Shown piece after piece: positions 2,420-46,977 of a DNA stretch of 64,000 nt. The DNA is from a virus. How positions within the stretch are numbered: position 1 is the first letter of the stretch; each line of letters starts with the position of its first letter. The stretch covers positions 35,001 to 99,000 of IMG/VR virus record IMGVR_UViG_3300022920_000004; one strand, 5' to 3'. The position numbers and the translations under genes were made by a program. The notes under the pieces are model-generated. The model was not told the origin of the DNA, searched no databases, and saw only the letters and a program-made list of their open reading frames with translations.

Positions 2420-3025
2420 CTACCACATTTCTGTGTTTTTGTTTAATTTTGTTTTAATGTTTTCTAATACTTTAAAATCAAAAGTCTCATTTTCAATATC
2501 AATAATGTCACCTAATTCAGCTTCACTACTAATAACTATTTTTTGAGTTTTTGATGATAAAGATTGTTCTAATTTTTGTCTATATTTAGTTGTTTTAAAT
2601 AATATATCTTTAACTTTTGTCAAAAACGGTAATGAATTTGGATTCTCTCCATACATTACTGTCCAAAATTCTAATATCAATTCTTTTGCATCATCTTTAA
2701 ATTCTGAGTATTTACTGTTTTTTAAACAATTATATTCATGTAAATATTCTTCAGGAAATTTAAAAATGTACAAAACTTGATTACCTATATCGTACATATC
2801 TATAAATAATTCATTATTTATTAAATGATGTTCGTAGGTTGTAAATTTTGGATTTGACAAATCAAAATCATGTAATATATAAATACAATTTTCATATTTA
2901 CCTTCATTATCAACCATAAATGTGTTGTTAAGATAAGGTAAGTATTGTTTTTCTATATTTACAAGTTCTGATATTAGAGGTAAAAGGTAAGTTTTTGATT
3001 TATTGAACTTAACTTTTTTTACCAT
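2420..3025 (-). CDS. Hypothetical protein
   Basis: 201-aa ORF in co-directional operon. Confidence 0.6.
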   Translation of the reverse strand: MVKKVKFNKSKTYLLPLISELVNIEKQYLPYLNNTFMVDNEGKYENCIYILHDFDLSNPKFTTYEHHLINNELFIDMYDIGNQVLYIFKFPEEYLHEYNCLKNSKYSEFKDDAKELILEFWTVMYGENPNSLPFLTKVKDILFKTTKYRQKLEQSLSSKTQKIVISSEAELGDIIDIENETFDFKVLENIKTKLNKNTEMW

Positions 3026-3162
3026 TTAATTATTTTTTATTTGCTATATCTATAGTTGTAGGATATTTAAATAATCTACAAATATCATCAATAATGCAGT
3101 CTCCATATTCAGGATTATTATATTCTATTAATATATCTCTTAATAATTCATGTTTATCCATA

Positions 3163-4161
3163 TTAAATATTTATAAATTCATCATTAATTTTAACTAAAC
3201 CATTATTCTCGTATTGTTCTTTAGACATATTAAATACTTCATTTCTCCAATGCCATTCAATATTATCAACTAATTCAATTAATCCTCTATATTTATAACC
3301 AGCATTTGTTGTAAAGCCATTTAAAGCCCCTTTAAACCATTTATCAGTAAATTCTAATGTAGTAGGTATTTTCTCATATCTACCACAATATAAAAACTGA
3401 AATGGTAGTATTTCATAACTTTCTAAATCATTTGTTAAAGCGTAATATTGTAAAGCTAAACTATAAATAACTCCTTGTAAGTAGTATCTATATTTAATAA
3501 AGTTACTTAGAAATTCACTTACAGGTTTACTACCAGTTTTCAAATCAATACCTCTAATAGTTTTATTTACGTGGTCTATTTTAATATAATCTAAAAATGA
3601 TAAAAATTTAAAATTACCAATTTCAAAGTTAACTTCAACTTGATACTCCAAATCACCTAAAATAAAATATCTACTAAATTCATGTGTTTTTAATACACTA
3701 ACCATTTCTTCAGCTTCTTGTACTAATAAATTAGTTACTAGAGTTTTATTATATGACTCAATCATAGCTATAACATAATTATTAGCTTCTTTTGTATATT
3801 TAGCTAATAATTTAGTATCATCTTTAGTAGTTTTCCATAAACCTAGTTCTTTAATACAATTTAAAATAAAAGTATTTTCATCTGTGTTTATTTTACCTAA
3901 ATGTTCTACTAAATAATCACATAAAGTACCTAACATTGCTGTAGGTTTTTCACCATCAAATACATAATATTTATCTGTAATTTTAAAATCTGGTTGCAAC
4001 ATATCATCTACTAAACTACCAAAATCTAAAAATTCACCACTAATTTTTTTTCTATCAATTAAGGAACGTGGTCCATCCCTATCAAATTCAGATACTCTAC
4101 CAAATGAAAGTCTTAAATCTGTAATTAAATTATTTTCAATCATTGCATCATCTAACGTCAT
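3163..4161 (-). CDS. PD-(D/E)xK exonuclease (RecE/ExoVIII-like)
   Basis: FGSLVD, LDYIKID...IDLKT and YRYYLQGVIY motifs. Confidence 0.8.
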   Translation of the reverse strand: MTLDDAMIENNLITDLRLSFGRVSEFDRDGPRSLIDRKKISGEFLDFGSLVDDMLQPDFKITDKYYVFDGEKPTAMLGTLCDYLVEHLGKINTDENTFILNCIKELGLWKTTKDDTKLLAKYTKEANNYVIAMIESYNKTLVTNLLVQEAEEMVSVLKTHEFSRYFILGDLEYQVEVNFEIGNFKFLSFLDYIKIDHVNKTIRGIDLKTGSKPVSEFLSNFIKYRYYLQGVIYSLALQYYALTNDLESYEILPFQFLYCGRYEKIPTTLEFTDKWFKGALNGFTTNAGYKYRGLIELVDNIEWHWRNEVFNMSKEQYENNGLVKINDEFINI

Positions 4162-35960: not shown

Positions 35961-36229
35961 AATTATATATATTTTTAAGTTAATATTCAAAGAAACACTC
36001 TTAACTACCATTGAGTGTTGACATCATTTAAGTAGAACCAAATACCATTGCTGATATTATCATAGGGCTGATGACATTTGATTAAGCACCTAATATTAGT
36101 AAGTGTAGCGAAGCAATAAAGTTCTATATCATTTTAACAATGATACTATATTTACACTATACTGATTAACACTTAATCAATGAAGAAAACCTAATCCCTC
36201 CAGAACTAAAGAAGAGTGTGACCCTCAAG

Positions 36230-36350
36230 CTTACAAAGGGGGTGGTAACCCAATTTGGAAGTGAAGAGGGGGTGATGTATTGGGTTAGTCCACACATTCA
36301 CTAAATTTTATTTTTTCCCAAAAATTTTTTAAAAATATTTTTTTTTCACA
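36230..36350. other. Divergence region with G-runs and A/T tracts (candidate terminus/pac/origin)
   Basis: AGGGGGTG twice (36237, 36267), TAACCCAAT/ATTGGGTTA inverted repeat, lies at the strand switch. Confidence 0.35.
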
Positions 36351-36393
36351 ATTAAGCCATACATATACACAATTTAAGTCTCTTTAAAAATAA

Positions 36394-36448
36394 TTTGAAA
36401 ATAAGTGCTCTAAAACTTGCATATTAAAAAAATTTATTGTACCTTTAC
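36394..36448 (+). promoter_or_regulatory. Bacteroidota sigma70-type promoter P1
   Basis: TTG(36417)-N20-TACCTTTA; ~55-bp unit repeated at P2 and P3. Confidence 0.7.
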
Positions 36449-36468
36449 AAAATATAAAACAATAGCAA

Positions 36469-36822
36469 ATGAAAATAATAATTGCAGGTTTAAGAAACTT
36501 TACTGATTATAACCTCCTAAAAACAACTATTAATAATTTACTAGATAAATCTAATATAACTATTACAGAAGTTGTAAGTGGTGGAGCTAATGGTGTTGAT
36601 AAACTTGGTGAACAATACGCTAACGAATATAACATACCTATTAGGAGATTTAATGCTGATTGGAATAAATATGGTAATGCTGCAGGACCTATTAGAAATA
36701 AACAAATGGCTGAGTATGCTGATAGATTAATAGCTTTCTGGGATAATAAGTCTAGAGGTACTGGAAGTATGATTAAATTAGCTAAAAACAATAAATTAAA
36801 AGTATATATTAAACAAATATAA
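36469..36822 (+). CDS. YspA-like SLOG family protein
   Basis: IIIAGLRNF.DY, VVSGGANGVD, ADWNKYGNAAGPIRN.QMA, AFWD..SRGT..MI. Confidence 0.85.
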   Translation: MKIIIAGLRNFTDYNLLKTTINNLLDKSNITITEVVSGGANGVDKLGEQYANEYNIPIRRFNADWNKYGNAAGPIRNKQMAEYADRLIAFWDNKSRGTGSMIKLAKNNKLKVYIKQI

Positions 36823-36824
36823 TT

Positions 36825-37217
36825 ATGAAAAATAAATATTACACACCAAGTATTGAAGAATTCTATGTAGGGTTTGAATGTGAGATATATGATGACGATG
36901 ATAAAACTTGGGATTTAGTATATGTTGATACACAACCAGGTCTTTGTAATATTACTGGGTTAGATTTAGATATTAGAGTCAAATACCTAGACAAATCTGA
37001 TATAGAGGATTTGGGGTTTACACATATAGGTGCTTTATGGTTTGAGAGTAAAGAACTTGATTGTAGAATTAGAAAATGGAAGGGTTTAGAGATTGATATC
37101 TACCACGATTGGAGTAGAAATGATGGTGAACACACTGATCATTATAAAGTCTTCAGAGGAACTATTAAAAACAAATCTGAATTAAAAATACTCTTAAAAC
37201 AACTTAATATAAAGTAA
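36825..37217 (+). CDS. Constant/variable family protein, copy 1
   Basis: YYTPSIEEFYVGFE / RVKYLDKSDIEDLGF / IKNKSELK..LKQLNI. Confidence 0.75.
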   Translation: MKNKYYTPSIEEFYVGFECEIYDDDDKTWDLVYVDTQPGLCNITGLDLDIRVKYLDKSDIEDLGFTHIGALWFESKELDCRIRKWKGLEIDIYHDWSRNDGEHTDHYKVFRGTIKNKSELKILLKQLNIK

Positions 37218-37222
37218 TACTA

Positions 37223-37248
37223 AACCCGTCTTAACAGATGGGTTTTTT
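37223..37248 (+). terminator. Intrinsic terminator
   Basis: AACCCGTC/GATGGGTT stem + T-run. Confidence 0.75.
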
Positions 37249-37275
37249 GTTGTAATAAAGTTAATTATAAAATAT

Positions 37276-37329
37276 TTTAAAAATAAATCACTTTTTACTT
37301 GCATATGTCAAATTTTTATTGTACCTTTG
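37276..37329 (+). promoter_or_regulatory. Bacteroidota sigma70-type promoter P2
   Basis: TTG(37299)-N20-TACCTTTG, matching the TAnnTTTG consensus. Confidence 0.8.
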
Positions 37330-37434
37330 CGGTGTTAATAACAAACACAACAAACATACAATGGCTTTCCATCAATTGGGGCTATGACGTTTCTGAAGGG
37401 GAAGGAGTATTTAAAAGAGGAGGGGAAACTCTTT

Positions 37435-37636
37435 AGCACCTAATAATAAAATATATAAATATGAAGGAAGAATTTAAATGGATTAATTATGATGAGTGGA
37501 AGTTTGAAAAGACTAGGGGTAGAAGTATTATATGGAAAGGTTTATCTAAAGAGACTTATCCTAAAGTAAAAGACGTTGTTGAACGTTATATTATAGGATG
37601 TGATCCTTATGATGAAGCACCTAATAAATAAAATAT
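37435..37636 (+). repeat. Direct repeat AGCACCTAATAA(A)TAAAATATA (37435-37455 and 37616-37636)
   Basis: Each copy lies just upstream of a mini-ORF start; core also at 36085 and inverted at 37830. Confidence 0.75.
37461..37631 (+). CDS. 56-aa mini-protein resembling the TerL nuclease active-site strand
   Basis: Manual translation ends ...ERYIIGCDPYDEAPNK; TerL has GRYIAGIDPIDAD. Confidence 0.6.
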   Translation: MKEEFKWINYDEWKFEKTRGRSIIWKGLSKETYPKVKDVVERYIIGCDPYDEAPNK

Positions 37637-37641
37637 AGATT

Positions 37642-37818
37642 ATGATAAAATTAATAAGTAACAAAGATCCTGAATTCTTTTTTAAGTATACAAACTCTTT
37701 AATGGATTTATATAATAAACAAAAACAAATGGATTTTACAGAAATGTTAAATAAATTTCCTATTAAAAATAGTAATGAAATTTATGAATGGAAAATAATG
37801 GGAAGATCTGCTAAATAA
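37642..37818 (+). CDS. 58-aa mini-protein resembling major capsid protein residues ~23-74
   Basis: MLNKFPIKNSNEIYEWKIMG vs MCP SLSLFPEKVLESSDDFVWKLVG. Confidence 0.6.
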   Translation: MIKLISNKDPEFFFKYTNSLMDLYNKQKQMDFTEMLNKFPIKNSNEIYEWKIMGRSAK

Positions 37819-37865
37819 CCCTTACTATTTTAGGTGCTTTATTAAAATAATTTAAAAATAAATAT

Positions 37866-39598: not shown

Positions 39599-39958
39599 AT
39601 GGAGAAATATTATACACCTGAAATTGAAGAGTTTCATGTTGGTTTTGAATATGAATATAATTACGAAGAAGGTATTACTAGGGTTTTAGGTACTAATGAT
39701 ACAGTAGATACTGAAGAGGTTAGAGTTAAATATTTAGATAAAGAAGATATAGAGAGTTTGGGGTTTAAGCTAGATAATGTACATAACGAGGTTAAATTTA
39801 ACTACTTAATGTTTCCTTATAGATTAGAGCATACACCTCATAACAACAGGTTAGATATCTATAAATGGGGTGACGAGTGCGATATGATAGGTTATATTAA
39901 CATCAAAAATAAATCAGAGTTAAAAAGATTATTAAAACAATTAAATATAATTGAATAA
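39599..39958 (+). CDS. Constant/variable family protein, copy 2
   Basis: YYTPEIEEFHVGFE / RVKYLDKEDIESLGF / IKNKSELKRLLKQLNI. Confidence 0.75.
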   Translation: MEKYYTPEIEEFHVGFEYEYNYEEGITRVLGTNDTVDTEEVRVKYLDKEDIESLGFKLDNVHNEVKFNYLMFPYRLEHTPHNNRLDIYKWGDECDMIGYINIKNKSELKRLLKQLNIIE

Positions 39959-40526: not shown

Positions 40527-40893
40527 TATTAATGTTAGTAGAAAGCGTTTATATTATAGGTGGTTAGAAATAACTAAACCTTTTCATAAACTAACTTCTC
40601 AACAACATAATATACTAAGCTTATTATTATACTATTTCTTTGAATATAGAAAGGATATAACTAATGATAAGTTATGTTGGAAGATGGTTTTTGATTACGA
40701 TACCAAGCAACTAATAAAGAAAGAACTTGGTATTAAAGACCCTAATCTACAGAATGTATTAACATCACTTAGAAAGAAAGGTGTAGTTATTGACAATGAG
40801 ATTGTATCTACTTATATACCAAATATAGAAGTTGATAGTAATAATTTTAAGATAATATTTAATTTTAATATTGTAGAAGATGGAAAGCAATAA
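40498..40893 (+). CDS. Winged-helix DNA-binding protein
   Basis: IKKELGIKDPNLQNVLTSLRKKGVVI HTH-wing pattern. Confidence 0.6.
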   Translation: MNMKNGKIANINVSRKRLYYRWLEITKPFHKLTSQQHNILSLLLYYFFEYRKDITNDKLCWKMVFDYDTKQLIKKELGIKDPNLQNVLTSLRKKGVVIDNEIVSTYIPNIEVDSNNFKIIFNFNIVEDGKQ

Positions 40894-41137
40894 AACTGTA
40901 ATAATAAAAAAATCTTTTAAAAGTAAACCTGATAGTTTAAGAGGGATACGTCCAGAAAATGCATTATTTCATATAGGAGACCCTGATATGGGAGAATTAA
41001 ATCATATTGAAGTTGAAGAGTTTAAAAAACTTTATGATGCTTGTAAACCTAAAAGTATTAATAATGTAGGTATAATAATAATAGGGACATCAGGAGAAAC
41101 CGATAATAATTTTAAAAATATTTTTTATGGAAAGTAA
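40880..41137 (+). CDS. 85-aa mini-protein resembling the TerL ATPase Walker-B/coupling segment
   Basis: PDSLRGIR...GIIIIGTSG...FKNIFY vs TerL PEKARGIR...GFMLAGGTGG...SEKLFY. Confidence 0.6.
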   Translation: MESNKTVIIKKSFKSKPDSLRGIRPENALFHIGDPDMGELNHIEVEEFKKLYDACKPKSINNVGIIIIGTSGETDNNFKNIFYGK

Positions 41138-41531
41138 ATACTATATACCAGATATATCTGAATTTTATGTTGGGTTTGAGTGTGAAGTTTATAATAAATA
41201 TTCAGAAGAATGGTATATTTTTTTATTTAACCAAGTTTTTGAAGACACATCTGTAGCGTATAATTTTACGGAAGGAAAATATAGAGTTAAATACTTAGAT
41301 AAATCTGATATAGAAAGTTTAGGGTTTAAACAAATAACTGATGACTGTTTTAATTTACCTTTAAATGATGATGAAGAACTTAGGTTATTGTATGAAGATA
41401 ATATTATAGTTATTTTCTTAGCTGACCAATATAACCGTAGTTTATTTAGGGGTTTAATTAAAAACAAATCTGAATTAAAGAAAGTTTTAAAACAATTAAA
41501 TATTGTAGATGAGGAAGAGAAGAAATCCTAA
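41127..41531 (+). CDS. Constant/variable family protein, copy 3
   Basis: YYIPDISEFYVGFE / RVKYLDKSDIESLGF / IKNKSELKKVLKQLNI. Confidence 0.75.
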   Translation: MESKYYIPDISEFYVGFECEVYNKYSEEWYIFLFNQVFEDTSVAYNFTEGKYRVKYLDKSDIESLGFKQITDDCFNLPLNDDEELRLLYEDNIIVIFLADQYNRSLFRGLIKNKSELKKVLKQLNIVDEEEKKS

Positions 41532-43019: not shown

Positions 43020-43256
43020 ATGGAAGAAAATAATAGAGGAACGGGTAGAACTACTAGGTTAGTTCAATTTTATATAGATAAGTTATTTACAACAACTGAT
43101 GAGGTTATAATTTATGATCATTATGACCATAAAATAGCTCATAAGTTTTTAACTGATGCTATAATTAGACGTATGCATAATGAAATACTTCTTAGAAGAA
43201 AAGATCTTATTTTAAAAAGAATTAATTCAAATATATTACAATTAACAAAAATATAA
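43020..43256 (+). CDS. Small protein with N-terminal P-loop-like motif
   Basis: RGTGRTTRL; start set to ATG 43020. Confidence 0.55.
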   Translation: MEENNRGTGRTTRLVQFYIDKLFTTTDEVIIYDHYDHKIAHKFLTDAIIRRMHNEILLRRKDLILKRINSNILQLTKI

Positions 43257-44722
43257 TGGAAGAAATTATATCAAATAAAGAAGTATTAACTAAATTACTA
43301 GGTGGTATAGATAAACTAGCTAATACAGTTAAAGTAACTTTAGGACCGAGTGGTAATACAGTTATTATAGCTGATGAATATGGTAAACCTTATGCTACTA
43401 AAGATGGTGTATCAGTATCTAACTATATTAATCTTAAAGACCCTGTAGAAAATATAGGTGTTACAATGATTAAAGAAGTAGCTAAGAAGACTGCTGATGA
43501 AGCTGGTGATGGTACTACAACAAGTATTGTATTAGCTCAAGCACTTATAACTAACGGTATTAAGTTTTTAAACGATGGTGGTACTTATAATGATATTAAA
43601 GAAATTTATTCTACATTATTACCAAAAGTATTAAATCTCATTAAAGATGCCTCTACTACAATTACTGCTGATGATATTGTAGATGTAGCTACTGTATCTG
43701 CTAATAATGATCGTGAAATAGGAGAATTAATACAAGTAGCATTTAATCATTCCACAGTAGTTAAAGTTGAAGAAGGTAAAGCTATTAAAGATAGTTTAGA
43801 GTTAATAACAGGTGTAACATATCCTGTAACATACTTTAGTAAGAAGTTTATAACTAATGAAGCTAAAAATACTGCTGAGATTAATGATGCTGCTGTATTA
43901 TTACTTGGTTGTAAGTTAGATAAATTAGATAACTTAAAGAAAGTATTAACTTATTGTAATAAAGAAGAAAAACCACTATTAATAATAACAGAGTTTATTA
44001 GTGATGATGCTTTACATATGCTGGAGACTAATCATATTAATAATGCTTTAAAAATACTGGCAGTTAAAACACCTGGTTACGCTAACTATAGAAATGAGTA
44101 TATAAAAGATTTAAGTGATCTTACTGATAGTATTATTATAGATGATCTTTCTAAAATGGTTGAAGTAGAGCGATTAGGTAGAATTAAAAGTGTAACAGCT
44201 AAATCTAATGAAACGGTATTAATTCCATATGATGATATTGATATTGAGCAAAGAATTACCAACCTCTTTACATTAAGTAAACAACCTAATTTAGGAGGTT
44301 ATGATAAAAAGATTTTATTAGAAAGAATTGATAATCTTAATGGAAAAGTATCTATTATTAAAGTAGGTGCTAAGTCTGAGATTGAAATGAAAGAACGTTA
44401 TGATAGAATTGAAGATGCTGTGTATGCAGTATCATCAGCACTAGAAGAAGGTGTCTTAGAGGGTGGTGGAGTAGCTTTATATAAGATTGCAGACACTTTA
44501 GATATTGACAGTAGTAAATCACTACATTTAATATTACAAGCTCTTAGAGCTCCTAATAAGACTATTAATGAAAATGGTGCTAAAGTTAATCCTTTTATAT
44601 TTGATGATTACACAGTAGTTGATCCTACTAAAGTAACTAGATGTGCTTTAGAAAATGCAGCATCTGTAGCATTAACTATATTAGGAACTAAAGCAGTTGT
44701 ATTAAATGAACATTTATGGTAG
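43256..44722 (+). CDS. groEL: GroEL-like chaperonin
   Basis: TLGPSG, TKDGVSV, AGDGTTT, IKVGA.SEIEMKE..DRIEDA, EEG..GGG, VDPTKVTR.ALENA.S. Confidence 0.95.
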   Translation: MEEIISNKEVLTKLLGGIDKLANTVKVTLGPSGNTVIIADEYGKPYATKDGVSVSNYINLKDPVENIGVTMIKEVAKKTADEAGDGTTTSIVLAQALITNGIKFLNDGGTYNDIKEIYSTLLPKVLNLIKDASTTITADDIVDVATVSANNDREIGELIQVAFNHSTVVKVEEGKAIKDSLELITGVTYPVTYFSKKFITNEAKNTAEINDAAVLLLGCKLDKLDNLKKVLTYCNKEEKPLLIITEFISDDALHMLETNHINNALKILAVKTPGYANYRNEYIKDLSDLTDSIIIDDLSKMVEVERLGRIKSVTAKSNETVLIPYDDIDIEQRITNLFTLSKQPNLGGYDKKILLERIDNLNGKVSIIKVGAKSEIEMKERYDRIEDAVYAVSSALEEGVLEGGGVALYKIADTLDIDSSKSLHLILQALRAPNKTINENGAKVNPFIFDDYTVVDPTKVTRCALENAASVALTILGTKAVVLNEHLW

Positions 44723-46977
44723 ATTTATTAAGTTTAAAGTTAAACAAATATCAAACACCTATAACACAAGAATTAAAAGATTCTTTACATAAGGAAGTAT
44801 GGAATGATTTAGAAGAATATATTTCTACAGTATCATTTATAGAACATATGATATCAGATGAAACTGTTCGTGGTTATGCTAGAGATAAACCTCGTAATAG
44901 TAATGGTCGTATAACTGTAGACTTAACTAAACCTCATATATTAGAAGATATAGATTTTTTTAGAGAGAAAGCTTTATTCTTTGAAAAAAATGGTAAATAT
45001 ACTAATATACCTGTTAATTCAAACCCTAAATCAGAATATGCTGCTTTTTGGAAACAAGAGTTGTATAGATGGGAACATGGTTTAACTAGGGAATCTGATG
45101 GTGAATGGATACCAGGAGAATTATATTTTTACTGGAACTATAGTCCTATATGGTTAGTTAAAGAAGATAAAACTAATAGTAGTGATAATAAAAAGAGTAA
45201 AGGTAAGCGGGTTAGAGAATTTCCTAAACCTTGGTCTGGAGACTATTTATTTCATCATTATATAGAGCAAGCTAAAACTAATGGTAAACATGGTAAACTA
45301 TTAAAATGTAGGGGAATTGGGTTTAGTTTTAAATGTGCTTCTTGGAGCCCAAGAAATATGTATATATACCCAGGTTCAGGTAATCCTAACTTTCATTTAG
45401 CTTCAGAGAAATCCTTTTTGCAAGGAGATAAAGGAATTTTTGGTAAAGTAATGGATTGTTTAGATTGGATAGCTGATAATACACCTTTTGCTAAACTTAG
45501 ACTTACAGATAGTAAGAAAGGGATGGAAATTCAGTTAGGTTATTTAGATGATTATGGTGTACGTAGAGGATTATTATCATCTGTATTTGGTATATCATTA
45601 AAAGATAATCCTGAAAAAGCAAGGGGTATTCGTGGACCTTTAATTCATTATGAAGAAGACGGTTTATTTCCTAACTTAGAAACAGCTTGGAACGTAAATA
45701 GAAAGGCTGTTGAGGATGGAGATGTATCATTTGGATTTATGCTTGCTGGTGGAACTGGAGGAACTGAAGGGGCTTCATTTGAAGGATCTGAAAAGTTATT
45801 CTATAAAGCTGATGCATATAATATATATTCCATACCTAATGCGTTTGATAAGAATGTTAAAGGTGTTACAAACTGTGGTTACTTTTGGGGTGCTTATATA
45901 AATCGTAATAAATGTTATGATGAATCTGTTGGAGAATCTGATGTTGTAAAAGCGTTAATAGAAATATTACAAGATAGATTTTTAGTAAAATATAATTCAT
46001 CAGATCCAAAAGCTATTACACAAAAGAAAGCTGAAGAATGTATAACACCTCAAGAAGCTGTATTAAGAGTTGATGGTACTATATTCCCTGTAGCTGATTT
46101 GAAGGATTATTTAGAAGATATATTTCCACGCAAAGAATCTTTCTTAGCCGAACATTATGTAGGTGATTTAACATATAAAAATGATGGTGGGGTTAAATGG
46201 ACTCCTAATCCAAGTTTATATCCAATTAGATCATATTCTAATGTACCAGCTAATAAACGAGGTGCTGTAGAGATATTTGAAATGCCTAAAAAGAATGGTA
46301 GGGGAGAAATAGCTAGTGGTAGATATATTGCAGGTATTGACCCTATTGATGCTGATACAGGTAACTCATTATTCTCAATGTTAGTAATGGATACATTTAC
46401 TGATAGAATAGTTGCTGAATATACTGGAAGACCTAGAACTGCTAAAGATGCTTATGAAATAACATTAAAGTTATTAATATTTTATAATGCTCAAGCTAAC
46501 TATGAGAACAACTTAAAAGGTTTATTTAGTTATTTTGACAATAAGAATGCACTTTATTTATTAAGTGATACTCCTCAAATCATTCGTGATATGGAGTTAA
46601 CTAAAGCAACTAATGTATATGGAAATAAAGCAAAAGGAACTAACGCAAACGCTAGATTAAACAGTTGGGCTAGATTATTACAAGTAGATTGGTTATTAGC
46701 CAAAGTAAGTAAAGAAGAAGGAGCTGATGATAAGCGACTAAATATACATAGATTAAGATCTATTGGTTATATTGAAGAGCTAATATATTGGAATCCTGAT
46801 GGTAACTTTGATAGGGTATCTGCAGCAGGTATGTTATTTATACTAAGAGAAGATAGACTAAAACGTACTGTAACAGCTAAAGATAATCAATATAAAAAGG
46901 TTAATACTTTAGCTAATGATCCTTATTTTAATAAGAATTATAAAGGTGGTATGGGTTTAGATAAATTAATAAAGTAA
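44716..46977 (+). CDS. terL: Terminase large subunit
   Basis: YFYWNY, KCRGIGFS, HYEEDG Walker B, GGTGG, GIDPID, NYENN, GNFDRVSA. Confidence 0.93.
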   Translation: MVDLLSLKLNKYQTPITQELKDSLHKEVWNDLEEYISTVSFIEHMISDETVRGYARDKPRNSNGRITVDLTKPHILEDIDFFREKALFFEKNGKYTNIPVNSNPKSEYAAFWKQELYRWEHGLTRESDGEWIPGELYFYWNYSPIWLVKEDKTNSSDNKKSKGKRVREFPKPWSGDYLFHHYIEQAKTNGKHGKLLKCRGIGFSFKCASWSPRNMYIYPGSGNPNFHLASEKSFLQGDKGIFGKVMDCLDWIADNTPFAKLRLTDSKKGMEIQLGYLDDYGVRRGLLSSVFGISLKDNPEKARGIRGPLIHYEEDGLFPNLETAWNVNRKAVEDGDVSFGFMLAGGTGGTEGASFEGSEKLFYKADAYNIYSIPNAFDKNVKGVTNCGYFWGAYINRNKCYDESVGESDVVKALIEILQDRFLVKYNSSDPKAITQKKAEECITPQEAVLRVDGTIFPVADLKDYLEDIFPRKESFLAEHYVGDLTYKNDGGVKWTPNPSLYPIRSYSNVPANKRGAVEIFEMPKKNGRGEIASGRYIAGIDPIDADTGNSLFSMLVMDTFTDRIVAEYTGRPRTAKDAYEITLKLLIFYNAQANYENNLKGLFSYFDNKNALYLLSDTPQIIRDMELTKATNVYGNKAKGTNANARLNSWARLLQVDWLLAKVSKEEGADDKRLNIHRLRSIGYIEELIYWNPDGNFDRVSAAGMLFILREDRLKRTVTAKDNQYKKVNTLANDPYFNKNYKGGMGLDKLIK

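Follow-up and report, generated by a model that had tools for sequence, protein, structure and literature searches.

Among very close relatives, phages of the T4 type gain, lose and swap small ORFs at repeated regulatory sequences, in the form of promoter-stem-loop (PeSL) cassettes and hyperplastic regions (PMC2839356, PMC4122927). A separate phage gene can also resemble part of the large terminase (TerL). An example is T4 vs.8, a paralogue resembling the TerL ATPase, which triggers EcAvs2 (PMC13601566). The segments of TerL to which published sensors bind are short and may even be unfolded: EcAvs2 grips 11 residues of the nuclease domain, SeAvs3 reads active-site residues, and Upx has been modelled to bind TerL by beta-augmentation (PMC13601566). 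A phage mimic of a sensed virion protein exists in DSAD1, an inhibitor that imitates the tail tube protein and traps DSR2 (PMC10973363). TerL is also a site of intein insertion in crAss-like phages (PMC7886860).

The window analysed here is a stretch of 64,000 nt (bases 35001-99000 of a 99-kb virus record that is about 98% complete). It comes from a marine crAss-like phage, and its DNA is present in seawater metagenomes. The resident TerL (753 aa) belongs to the crAss-like terminase family phrog_6681 (PHROG scan, E 4.6e-105) and shows about 41-43% identity to those of Steigviridae phages such as crAss001. The genes point leftward as far as about 34 kb and in the opposite direction, rightward, beyond about 36.4 kb; the 36.4-43.2 kb region consists of small ORFs lying upstream of a Cpn60-like gene and TerL. 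This Cpn60/GroEL-like chaperonin gene (43256-44722; PF00118, E 3.3e-47) immediately precedes TerL, with a 7-nt overlap at the TerL start. A non-coding, G+C-richer stretch (36100-36300) marks the switch at which the leftward block and the rightward block diverge, and it has neither a convincing ORF nor an Rfam match. A search for tRNA genes found none.

One of the small early ORFs, ORF56, had been singled out in the initial annotation as an unannotated reading frame carrying the catalytic strand of the TerL nuclease. Translation confirmed its limits, its length of 56 aa and its sequence. It is indeed unnamed, but it has been predicted by public gene callers, and the exact sequence is present in JGI/IMG, Logan and ENA. 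The features of the locus are given in Table 1.

Table 1. Features of the ORF56 slot and of related sites, in window coordinates unless marked L063.
Feature	Position	Strand	Remarks
Terminator-like hairpin and T run	37222-37245	+	10-pair stem; 1 found, 0.1 expected; ends the upstream 130-aa gene
76-nt promoter-like repeat, TTG ... TAccTTTG	37253-37328	+	Family D1, copies at 36371, 37253 and 38045
ORF56 leader	37329-37460	+	132 nt, purine-rich; fold z -2.2
Direct repeat 1 (AGCACCTAATAA ... ATGA)	37435-37464	+	Translation-start region; contains the ORF56 ATG
ORF56	37461-37631	+	56 aa; six intact variants in public collections
TerL nuclease motif I look-alike, RYIIGCDPYDE (ORF56 aa 42-52)	37584-37616	+	Abuts direct repeat 2
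Direct repeat 2	37616-37645	+	Codons 53-56 (APNK) and stop of ORF56; start region and ATG of the next ORF
ORF58	37642-37818	+	Second small ORF of the variable slot; in seawater contigs, 218 other nt take the place of its body (37651-37811)
Right slot boundary	37813-37863	+	L063 homology resumes; inverted AGCACCTAA copy and upstream part of the promoter repeat (D6, I24)
ORF-sized indels, window versus L063	38724-38896, 40265-40503, 40891-41126, 42145-42459, 43033-43250; L063 5134-5352
ORF85	40880-41137	+	Optional; TerL likeness, ATPase segment aa ~290-365
Motif I of the resident TerL, RYIAGIDPID (aa 536-545)	46321-46350	+	Within TerL, 44716-46977

ORF56 is a 181-nt optional cassette between two direct repeats of about 30 nt, both of the form AGCACCTAATAA(A)TAAAATATA..ATGA. 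In a contig from seawater run X3, position 37434 is joined to 37616 with 12 nt (AGCACCTAATAA) common to the two sides of the joint, so that exactly the 181-nt unit is missing; the replacement of the ORF58 body by other DNA is seen in this contig as well. Occupied and empty forms are thus both found in seawater. The 76-nt repeat upstream has the pattern TTG/TAnnTTTG, which we take to mark a Bacteroidota-type promoter, and ORF56 would be transcribed from this predicted promoter. The leader is long, at 132 nt compared with the 23-27 nt that follow the other two promoter repeats. The sole match in an Rfam scan was a sub-threshold Phe_leader on the terminator at 37222-37245, and none fell on the ORF56 leader.

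The 9-mer AGCACCTAA is present in nine copies, on both strands, compared with 0.56 expected from shuffles (window positions 151, 13257, 35363, 36085, 37435, 37616, 37830, 39094 and 51832). Four of them are clustered in 36085-37838, where two head the direct repeats of ORF56 and one is inverted at the right boundary of the slot. The 9-mer may mark a boundary, or it may serve in regulation or recombination.

The sibling phage L063 has flanks that are 95-99% identical to the window, and shows a different slot content. Window positions 37165-37469 match L063 2638-2948, the homology running through the leader and past the ORF56 ATG to 37469, then resuming at 37813. The 3′ two thirds of the leader are near-identical in L063, while the promoter just upstream has diverged there. 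In place of ORF56 and its neighbour, L063 carries a 205-aa ORF (2940-3557) with no Pfam match, followed by an Endonuclease_7 gene (3647-4054; PF02945, 91 bits) that has no counterpart in the window. A by-eye identification of the 205-aa ORF as a C5 methyltransferase was dropped, as it had no Pfam support. Beyond the slot, the window and L063 are distinguished by at least six further ORF-sized indels in 38.7-43.3 kb (Table 1), with overlaps of 3-20 nt at the joints; turnover in the early region proceeds by single small genes. This region also contains three paralogues of about 120-130 aa (36825-37217, 39599-39958 and about 41134-41520), which share the pattern KYYTP.IEEF.VGFE ... NKSELK.LLKQLNI. 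Their conserved 3′ ends are repeated DNA (families D2-D5) and could be recombination sites.

The pattern resembles that of PeSL-type shuffling, i.e., ORF-sized presence/absence or replacement with joints in short repeats, as seen in the X3 contig and in L063. It differs in the repeat involved. The PeSL unit is a promoter-stem-loop, whereas the repeat bounding ORF56 is a translation-start element (AGCACCTAATAA...ATG); the promoter-like repeat of 76 nt occurs three times in the window, and a terminator lies close to ORF56. The hosts of the cassettes also differ, T4-type phages on the one hand and a crAss-like phage with predicted Bacteroidota-type promoters on the other, and in the present case the shuffling is read from sequence comparisons.

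The second small ORF of the slot, ORF58, was also compared with phage proteins. A likeness of its N-terminus to the C-terminal tail of TerL (IKLISNKDPEFFFKYTN vs IKRLSD-DPFFSKNYTN) was rejected as chance, with a pairwise E of 2.7 and no profile match. ORF58 was the top non-self match to an HMM of the major capsid protein (MCP), but at E 0.19 (6.3 bits), inside the control range, and this candidate was likewise set aside.

Six distinct ORF56 variants of 56-58 aa were found on at least a dozen contigs, and the frame is intact in all six. They differ by E3K, R19G, G20D, I24V, D38G, I45S, C47Y and A53S, and also in their first codons (MKE, MKK or MNVNE), a variation at the junction that is expected if recombination joins sit just after the start. 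Conservation of the motif in homologues had been named in the initial annotation as a check: RYIIGCDPYD is present in five of the six variants, while the sixth reads RYSIGYDPYD, keeping R, Y, G and D-P-Y-D. Across the variants the motif is no better conserved than the remainder of the protein, with changes at 2 of 11 residues compared with 5 of 41. Nucleotide changes in seawater runs X2 and X4 are unevenly placed: the covered part of ORF56 (about 150 nt) has a single, synonymous change (37511 G>A, AAG to AAA), compared with seven (5 substitutions, 2 indels) in the 200-nt leader before it. Selection or recent spread could account for ORF56 being less changed than its leader.

Beyond these variants ORF56 has a very narrow distribution, and the gene is absent from sibling genomes. 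An exhaustive phmmer search returned only the near-identical 56-58-aa variants, plus two artefacts from repeat proteins (P0002, P0003). Scans of IMG/VR and JGI metagenomes for relatives gave only L003, a spurious match to the antisense strand of a portal-like gene. None of 5.8 billion proteins was a longer protein sharing three 5-mers with ORF56, and a search of the ESM Atlas gave no usable match. No terminase family was found in comparisons with Pfam (E up to 1) and PHROGs (E up to 10), scans whose filters discard weak matches. An AlphaFold2 model built from the six variants had low confidence (pLDDT 52.5).

The claim of TerL likeness had been based on the resident TerL, and the reported correspondence of RYIIGCDPYD to RYIAGIDPID, with identity at 7 of 10 positions, is correct. 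As a single pair, ORF56 and the resident TerL give a BLASTP E of 0.016. Shuffled controls, named in the initial annotation as the check on this match, did not bear it out: the Smith-Waterman score of 38 (shuffle mean 32.1, sd 4.9) was reached by 275 of 2000 shuffles. The pairwise argument therefore fails, yet profile evidence supports a TerL-type motif. Sequence comparison places ORF56 nearer to the Cys-type alleles (GCDPYD) of other crAss-like phages than to the resident TerL, of which it is not a copy. Identity to any TerL is 10-14 of 37 aligned positions.

A tblastn search with ORF56 of 2.3 billion bases of phage DNA gave a sole match, to the TerL of cr124_1 at the homologous position (17 of 43 identical), with an E of 4 database-wide. 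The alignment of this pair has a z of 8.4 and was reached by none of 2000 shuffles. When the 1407 six-frame ORFs were scored with a full-length HMM of 111 TerLs, mostly from the window's own clade, the ORF56 frame ranked first after TerL itself (8.8 bits, E 0.024). A broad Crassvirales segment HMM was built from 37 sequences, comprising 17 diverse TerL segments (Steigviridae, Suoliviridae, Fipvunavirus and a cyanophage) and 20 non-redundant segments of the own clade. With this profile the proposed likeness was upheld: ORF56 was the top non-TerL among the same 1407 ORFs at 17.6 bits (E 1.5e-4), the next scoring 6.7 bits. The score thus climbs with the breadth of the profile, and each TerL sub-clade profile alone was positive for ORF56 (9.3-13.7 bits). 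None of 20,000 shuffles reached 17.6 bits (maximum 15.2 bits, a single shuffle), and among 25,344 natural ORFs, taken in six frames from 80 related loci, the highest score was 9.6 bits. In hhalign, the six variants aligned to 18 TerL segments with a probability of 89.6% (P 1.9e-6). Control HMMs of 13 late-protein families, which were built from close relatives only whereas the TerL profile alone was broadened, had best non-self matches of 3-11 bits, with one exception of 19.9 bits in an overlapping frame beside the family's own gene.

The TerL signal is confined to aa 42-52, and the 33 nt concerned end exactly at the start of direct repeat 2. Scored against the columns before the motif in four TerL sub-profiles, ORF56 aa 1-41 gave -2.0 to 0.9 bits, which is the level of shuffles; real cross-family TerLs, when tested in this way, mostly scored well above that level (medians of 2.4-34 bits, with a range from -1.1 to 47). 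A by-eye reading of ORF56 as collinear with about 45 TerL residues (G..IIW, YP) was dropped, since the upstream-only tests gave it no support. The 11 residues are identical at nine positions to the TerLs of L081 and L082, and at the DNA level the closest match to the 33 nt, in L082, agrees at 27/33 nt. From these residues it can safely be said that the C-terminal end of ORF56 carries motif I of the Cys/Tyr type (GCDPYD), copied over 11 residues. The catalytic strand named in the initial annotation is present to this extent, as a match above background to motif I of many crAss-like TerLs, but only these 11 residues are TerL-like. It is likely, on the profile comparisons, that the motif derives from a TerL.

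The resemblance to the Crassvirales TerL nuclease domain (phrog_6681, RNase H-like) lies in aa 42-52, which follow x-Y-I-x-G-x-D-P-x-D. The domain has about 250 aa, compared with 56 for the whole of ORF56, and outside the motif ORF56 is unlike it and has no Pfam or PHROG match. It ends about 5-8 residues after the Asp and has neither the second and third acidic residues nor the 200 or more fold residues that come after motif I in TerL. With one catalytic acidic residue and no fold, no nuclease activity is possible, as had been stated at the outset. The two also differ in setting, TerL being a packaging gene and ORF56 an early-region accessory cassette.

A second optional mini-ORF, ORF85, lies 3.3 kb from ORF56 and is absent from L063. 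An ATGGAAAG repeat bounds the insertion and duplicates the beginning of the following gene, so that ORF85 starts with M-E-S, as that gene does, and has a stop codon overlapping the gene's start. The likeness to TerL consists of S.K..P...RGIR, a Walker-B-like stretch in which the acidic pair is lost, and then G....GT.GE. Semi-global alignment to TerL aa 283-372 gave z of 2.4-4.8, hhalign a P of 0.013, and BLASTP an E of about 1 at one place; the likeness is rated as only moderate. A word-based homologue search returned only the query itself. ORF56 and ORF85 share an insertion design and a presumed parent protein, which raises the odds that the ORF56 motif is no accident.

ORF56 is probably a TerL-derived motif within a non-catalytic accessory mini-gene. 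The reading we favour, at slightly less than an even chance, is that it is a dispensable by-product of recombination, tolerated rather than needed. The 181-nt cassette sits in a fast-changing early-gene region between two copies of a translation-start element, the first providing the ORF56 start codon and the second its last four codons and stop, as well as the start region of the next gene. The last eleven unique residues, RYIIGCDPYDE, would be a copy of motif I from a Cys-type large terminase other than the resident one, and the first 41 may be unrelated to TerL or diverged beyond recognition. Heavy recombination could have produced the cassette, either by truncating a diverged TerL-type gene to its front end or by capturing a short patch. 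Any action of ORF56 would be through presenting that strand, without catalysis. Both the TerL descent and the neutrality of ORF56 are what we infer from these comparisons. Were ORF56 a scrap of recombination, it would show in good resolution how very small early genes are built and lost in crAss-like phages, with an ORF-sized unit inserted behind a duplicated start region and both occupied and empty forms circulating in seawater.

Several observations run against the by-product reading. An 11-residue match is short, and about 90 gene families and 1407 ORFs leave room for chance. There is no close donor TerL, the best DNA match being that in L082. Under neutrality, one would hardly expect a perfect motif next to 41 residues that cannot be recognised, except through capture of a patch or from a very distant donor. 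All six variants retain an intact ORF, and the presence of another optional mini-ORF with TerL likeness agrees better with a purposeful set than with an accident.

Such a purpose could be that of a functional TerL look-alike, an unlikely reading overall, in which ORF56 and ORF85 would be made early and would present conserved TerL strands. They could occupy a host terminase sensor (Avs1-3 or Upx type) without triggering it, or they could poison the packaging motor of a rival phage in the same cell, the resident TerL being spared because it differs at these positions. Consistent with this, TerL likeness is seen in two optional early mini-ORFs, each of which gained a duplicated start through its insertion, and both are nearer to foreign TerLs than to the resident one. 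The near-invariant TerL positions (Y, G and the catalytic D) and P-x-D are kept even in the most divergent ORF56 variant, and the intact frames and the low divergence of ORF56 relative to its leader point the same way. If it were correct, it would point to a route by which phages counter immune sensors that recognise terminase. The idea has published precedents. The binding of short TerL segments by sensors agrees with the idea, and both vs.8 and ORF56 are separate phage genes that resemble part of the terminase. However, vs.8 comprises an entire ATPase-like domain, which has Walker motifs and is structurally very similar to TerL, whereas ORF56 offers an 11-residue nuclease motif only; and vs.8 activates its sensor, while a decoy role of ORF56 would be an inhibitory one. 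DSAD1, a folded protein with a solved complex, is a precedent only for the functional idea.

The by-product reading is favoured over a look-alike since only 11 residues are TerL-like, the motif is no better kept than the remainder of the protein, the cassette is optional and narrowly distributed, and no selection is evident. The low-confidence structure model and the only moderate test results for ORF85 also speak against a look-alike. In its most developed form, which is less likely still, ORF56 (nuclease strand) and ORF85 (a piece of the ATPase core) would make up an early two-piece set of terminase look-alikes, gained as separate cassettes that each placed a TerL fragment behind a duplicated gene start, and blunting sensors of conserved TerL segments (Avs1-3/Upx type) or jamming the packaging motor of a rival.

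It is also improbable, to about the same degree, that ORF56 is an ordinary lineage-specific early ORF with no more than a chance resemblance of its C-terminus to TerL motif I. In favour of chance, the pairwise score against the resident TerL does not stand out from the shuffles, aa 1-41 have no TerL signal where real cross-family TerLs mostly score well above (up to 47 bits), the Pfam and PHROG scans are empty, the tblastn E is only 4 database-wide, and one composition-matched shuffle came to 15.2 bits. Set against these, 17.6 bits lies far outside the natural and shuffled backgrounds and the 13-family control, and the score rises from 8.8 to 17.6 bits with a broader profile. An accidental likeness would also have to account for a sole tblastn match in 2.3 billion bases that falls in a TerL at the homologous position, and for a second TerL-like mini-ORF 3.3 kb away.

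Many TerLs of the window's clade carry LAGLIDADG/Hint inteins, at three sites, although the resident TerL has none. The first site is after RG.GF near the P-loop (P0011, P0016, P0017, P0031, P0072), the second is inside AGG|TGG (P0029, P0005), and the third is inside the nuclease motif RYIIG|CDP, where P0018 has a LAGLIDADG intein exactly at RYIIG|CDPID. This last insertion, between G and C of the motif, is at the same TerL spot that ORF56 resembles, and the spliced junction of P0018 agrees with ORF56 at 9 of 10 positions. Inteins favour the most conserved or catalytic motifs. A Cys at the motif position is common in intein-free TerLs (14 of the 121 motif matches among the proteins fetched at that stage, including the ORF56 variant P0001). 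For these two reasons the P0018 junction is treated as a coincidence rather than as evidence. In a Pfam scan, ORF56 and ORF58 showed no intein splicing blocks and no endonuclease domain; only the extein junction is mimicked.

It is very improbable that the 33 nt are the copied homing site of a TerL intein (about 15 + 18 nt around the insertion point), left by ectopic insertion then loss or by a mis-repaired endonuclease cut: ORF56 does have the +1 Cys that such an intein needs, where the resident TerL has Ile, an Endonuclease_7 gene adjoins the slot in L063, ORF85 spans another intein site, and TerL inteins are established in crAss-like phages (PMC7886860), but the cassette holds no remnant of an intein or endonuclease, and coincidence with a conserved motif is expected in any case.

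During the TerL comparisons, in-frame stop codons were seen in the TerL genes of some Suoliviridae phages (L001, i.e., cr124_1, L090, L092, L094 and L095), which were taken as TAG=Q, an assumed codon identity; the resident TerL has no in-frame stop. The stops in these Suoliviridae genes fit the stop-codon recoding reported for crAss-like phages (PMC7886860).
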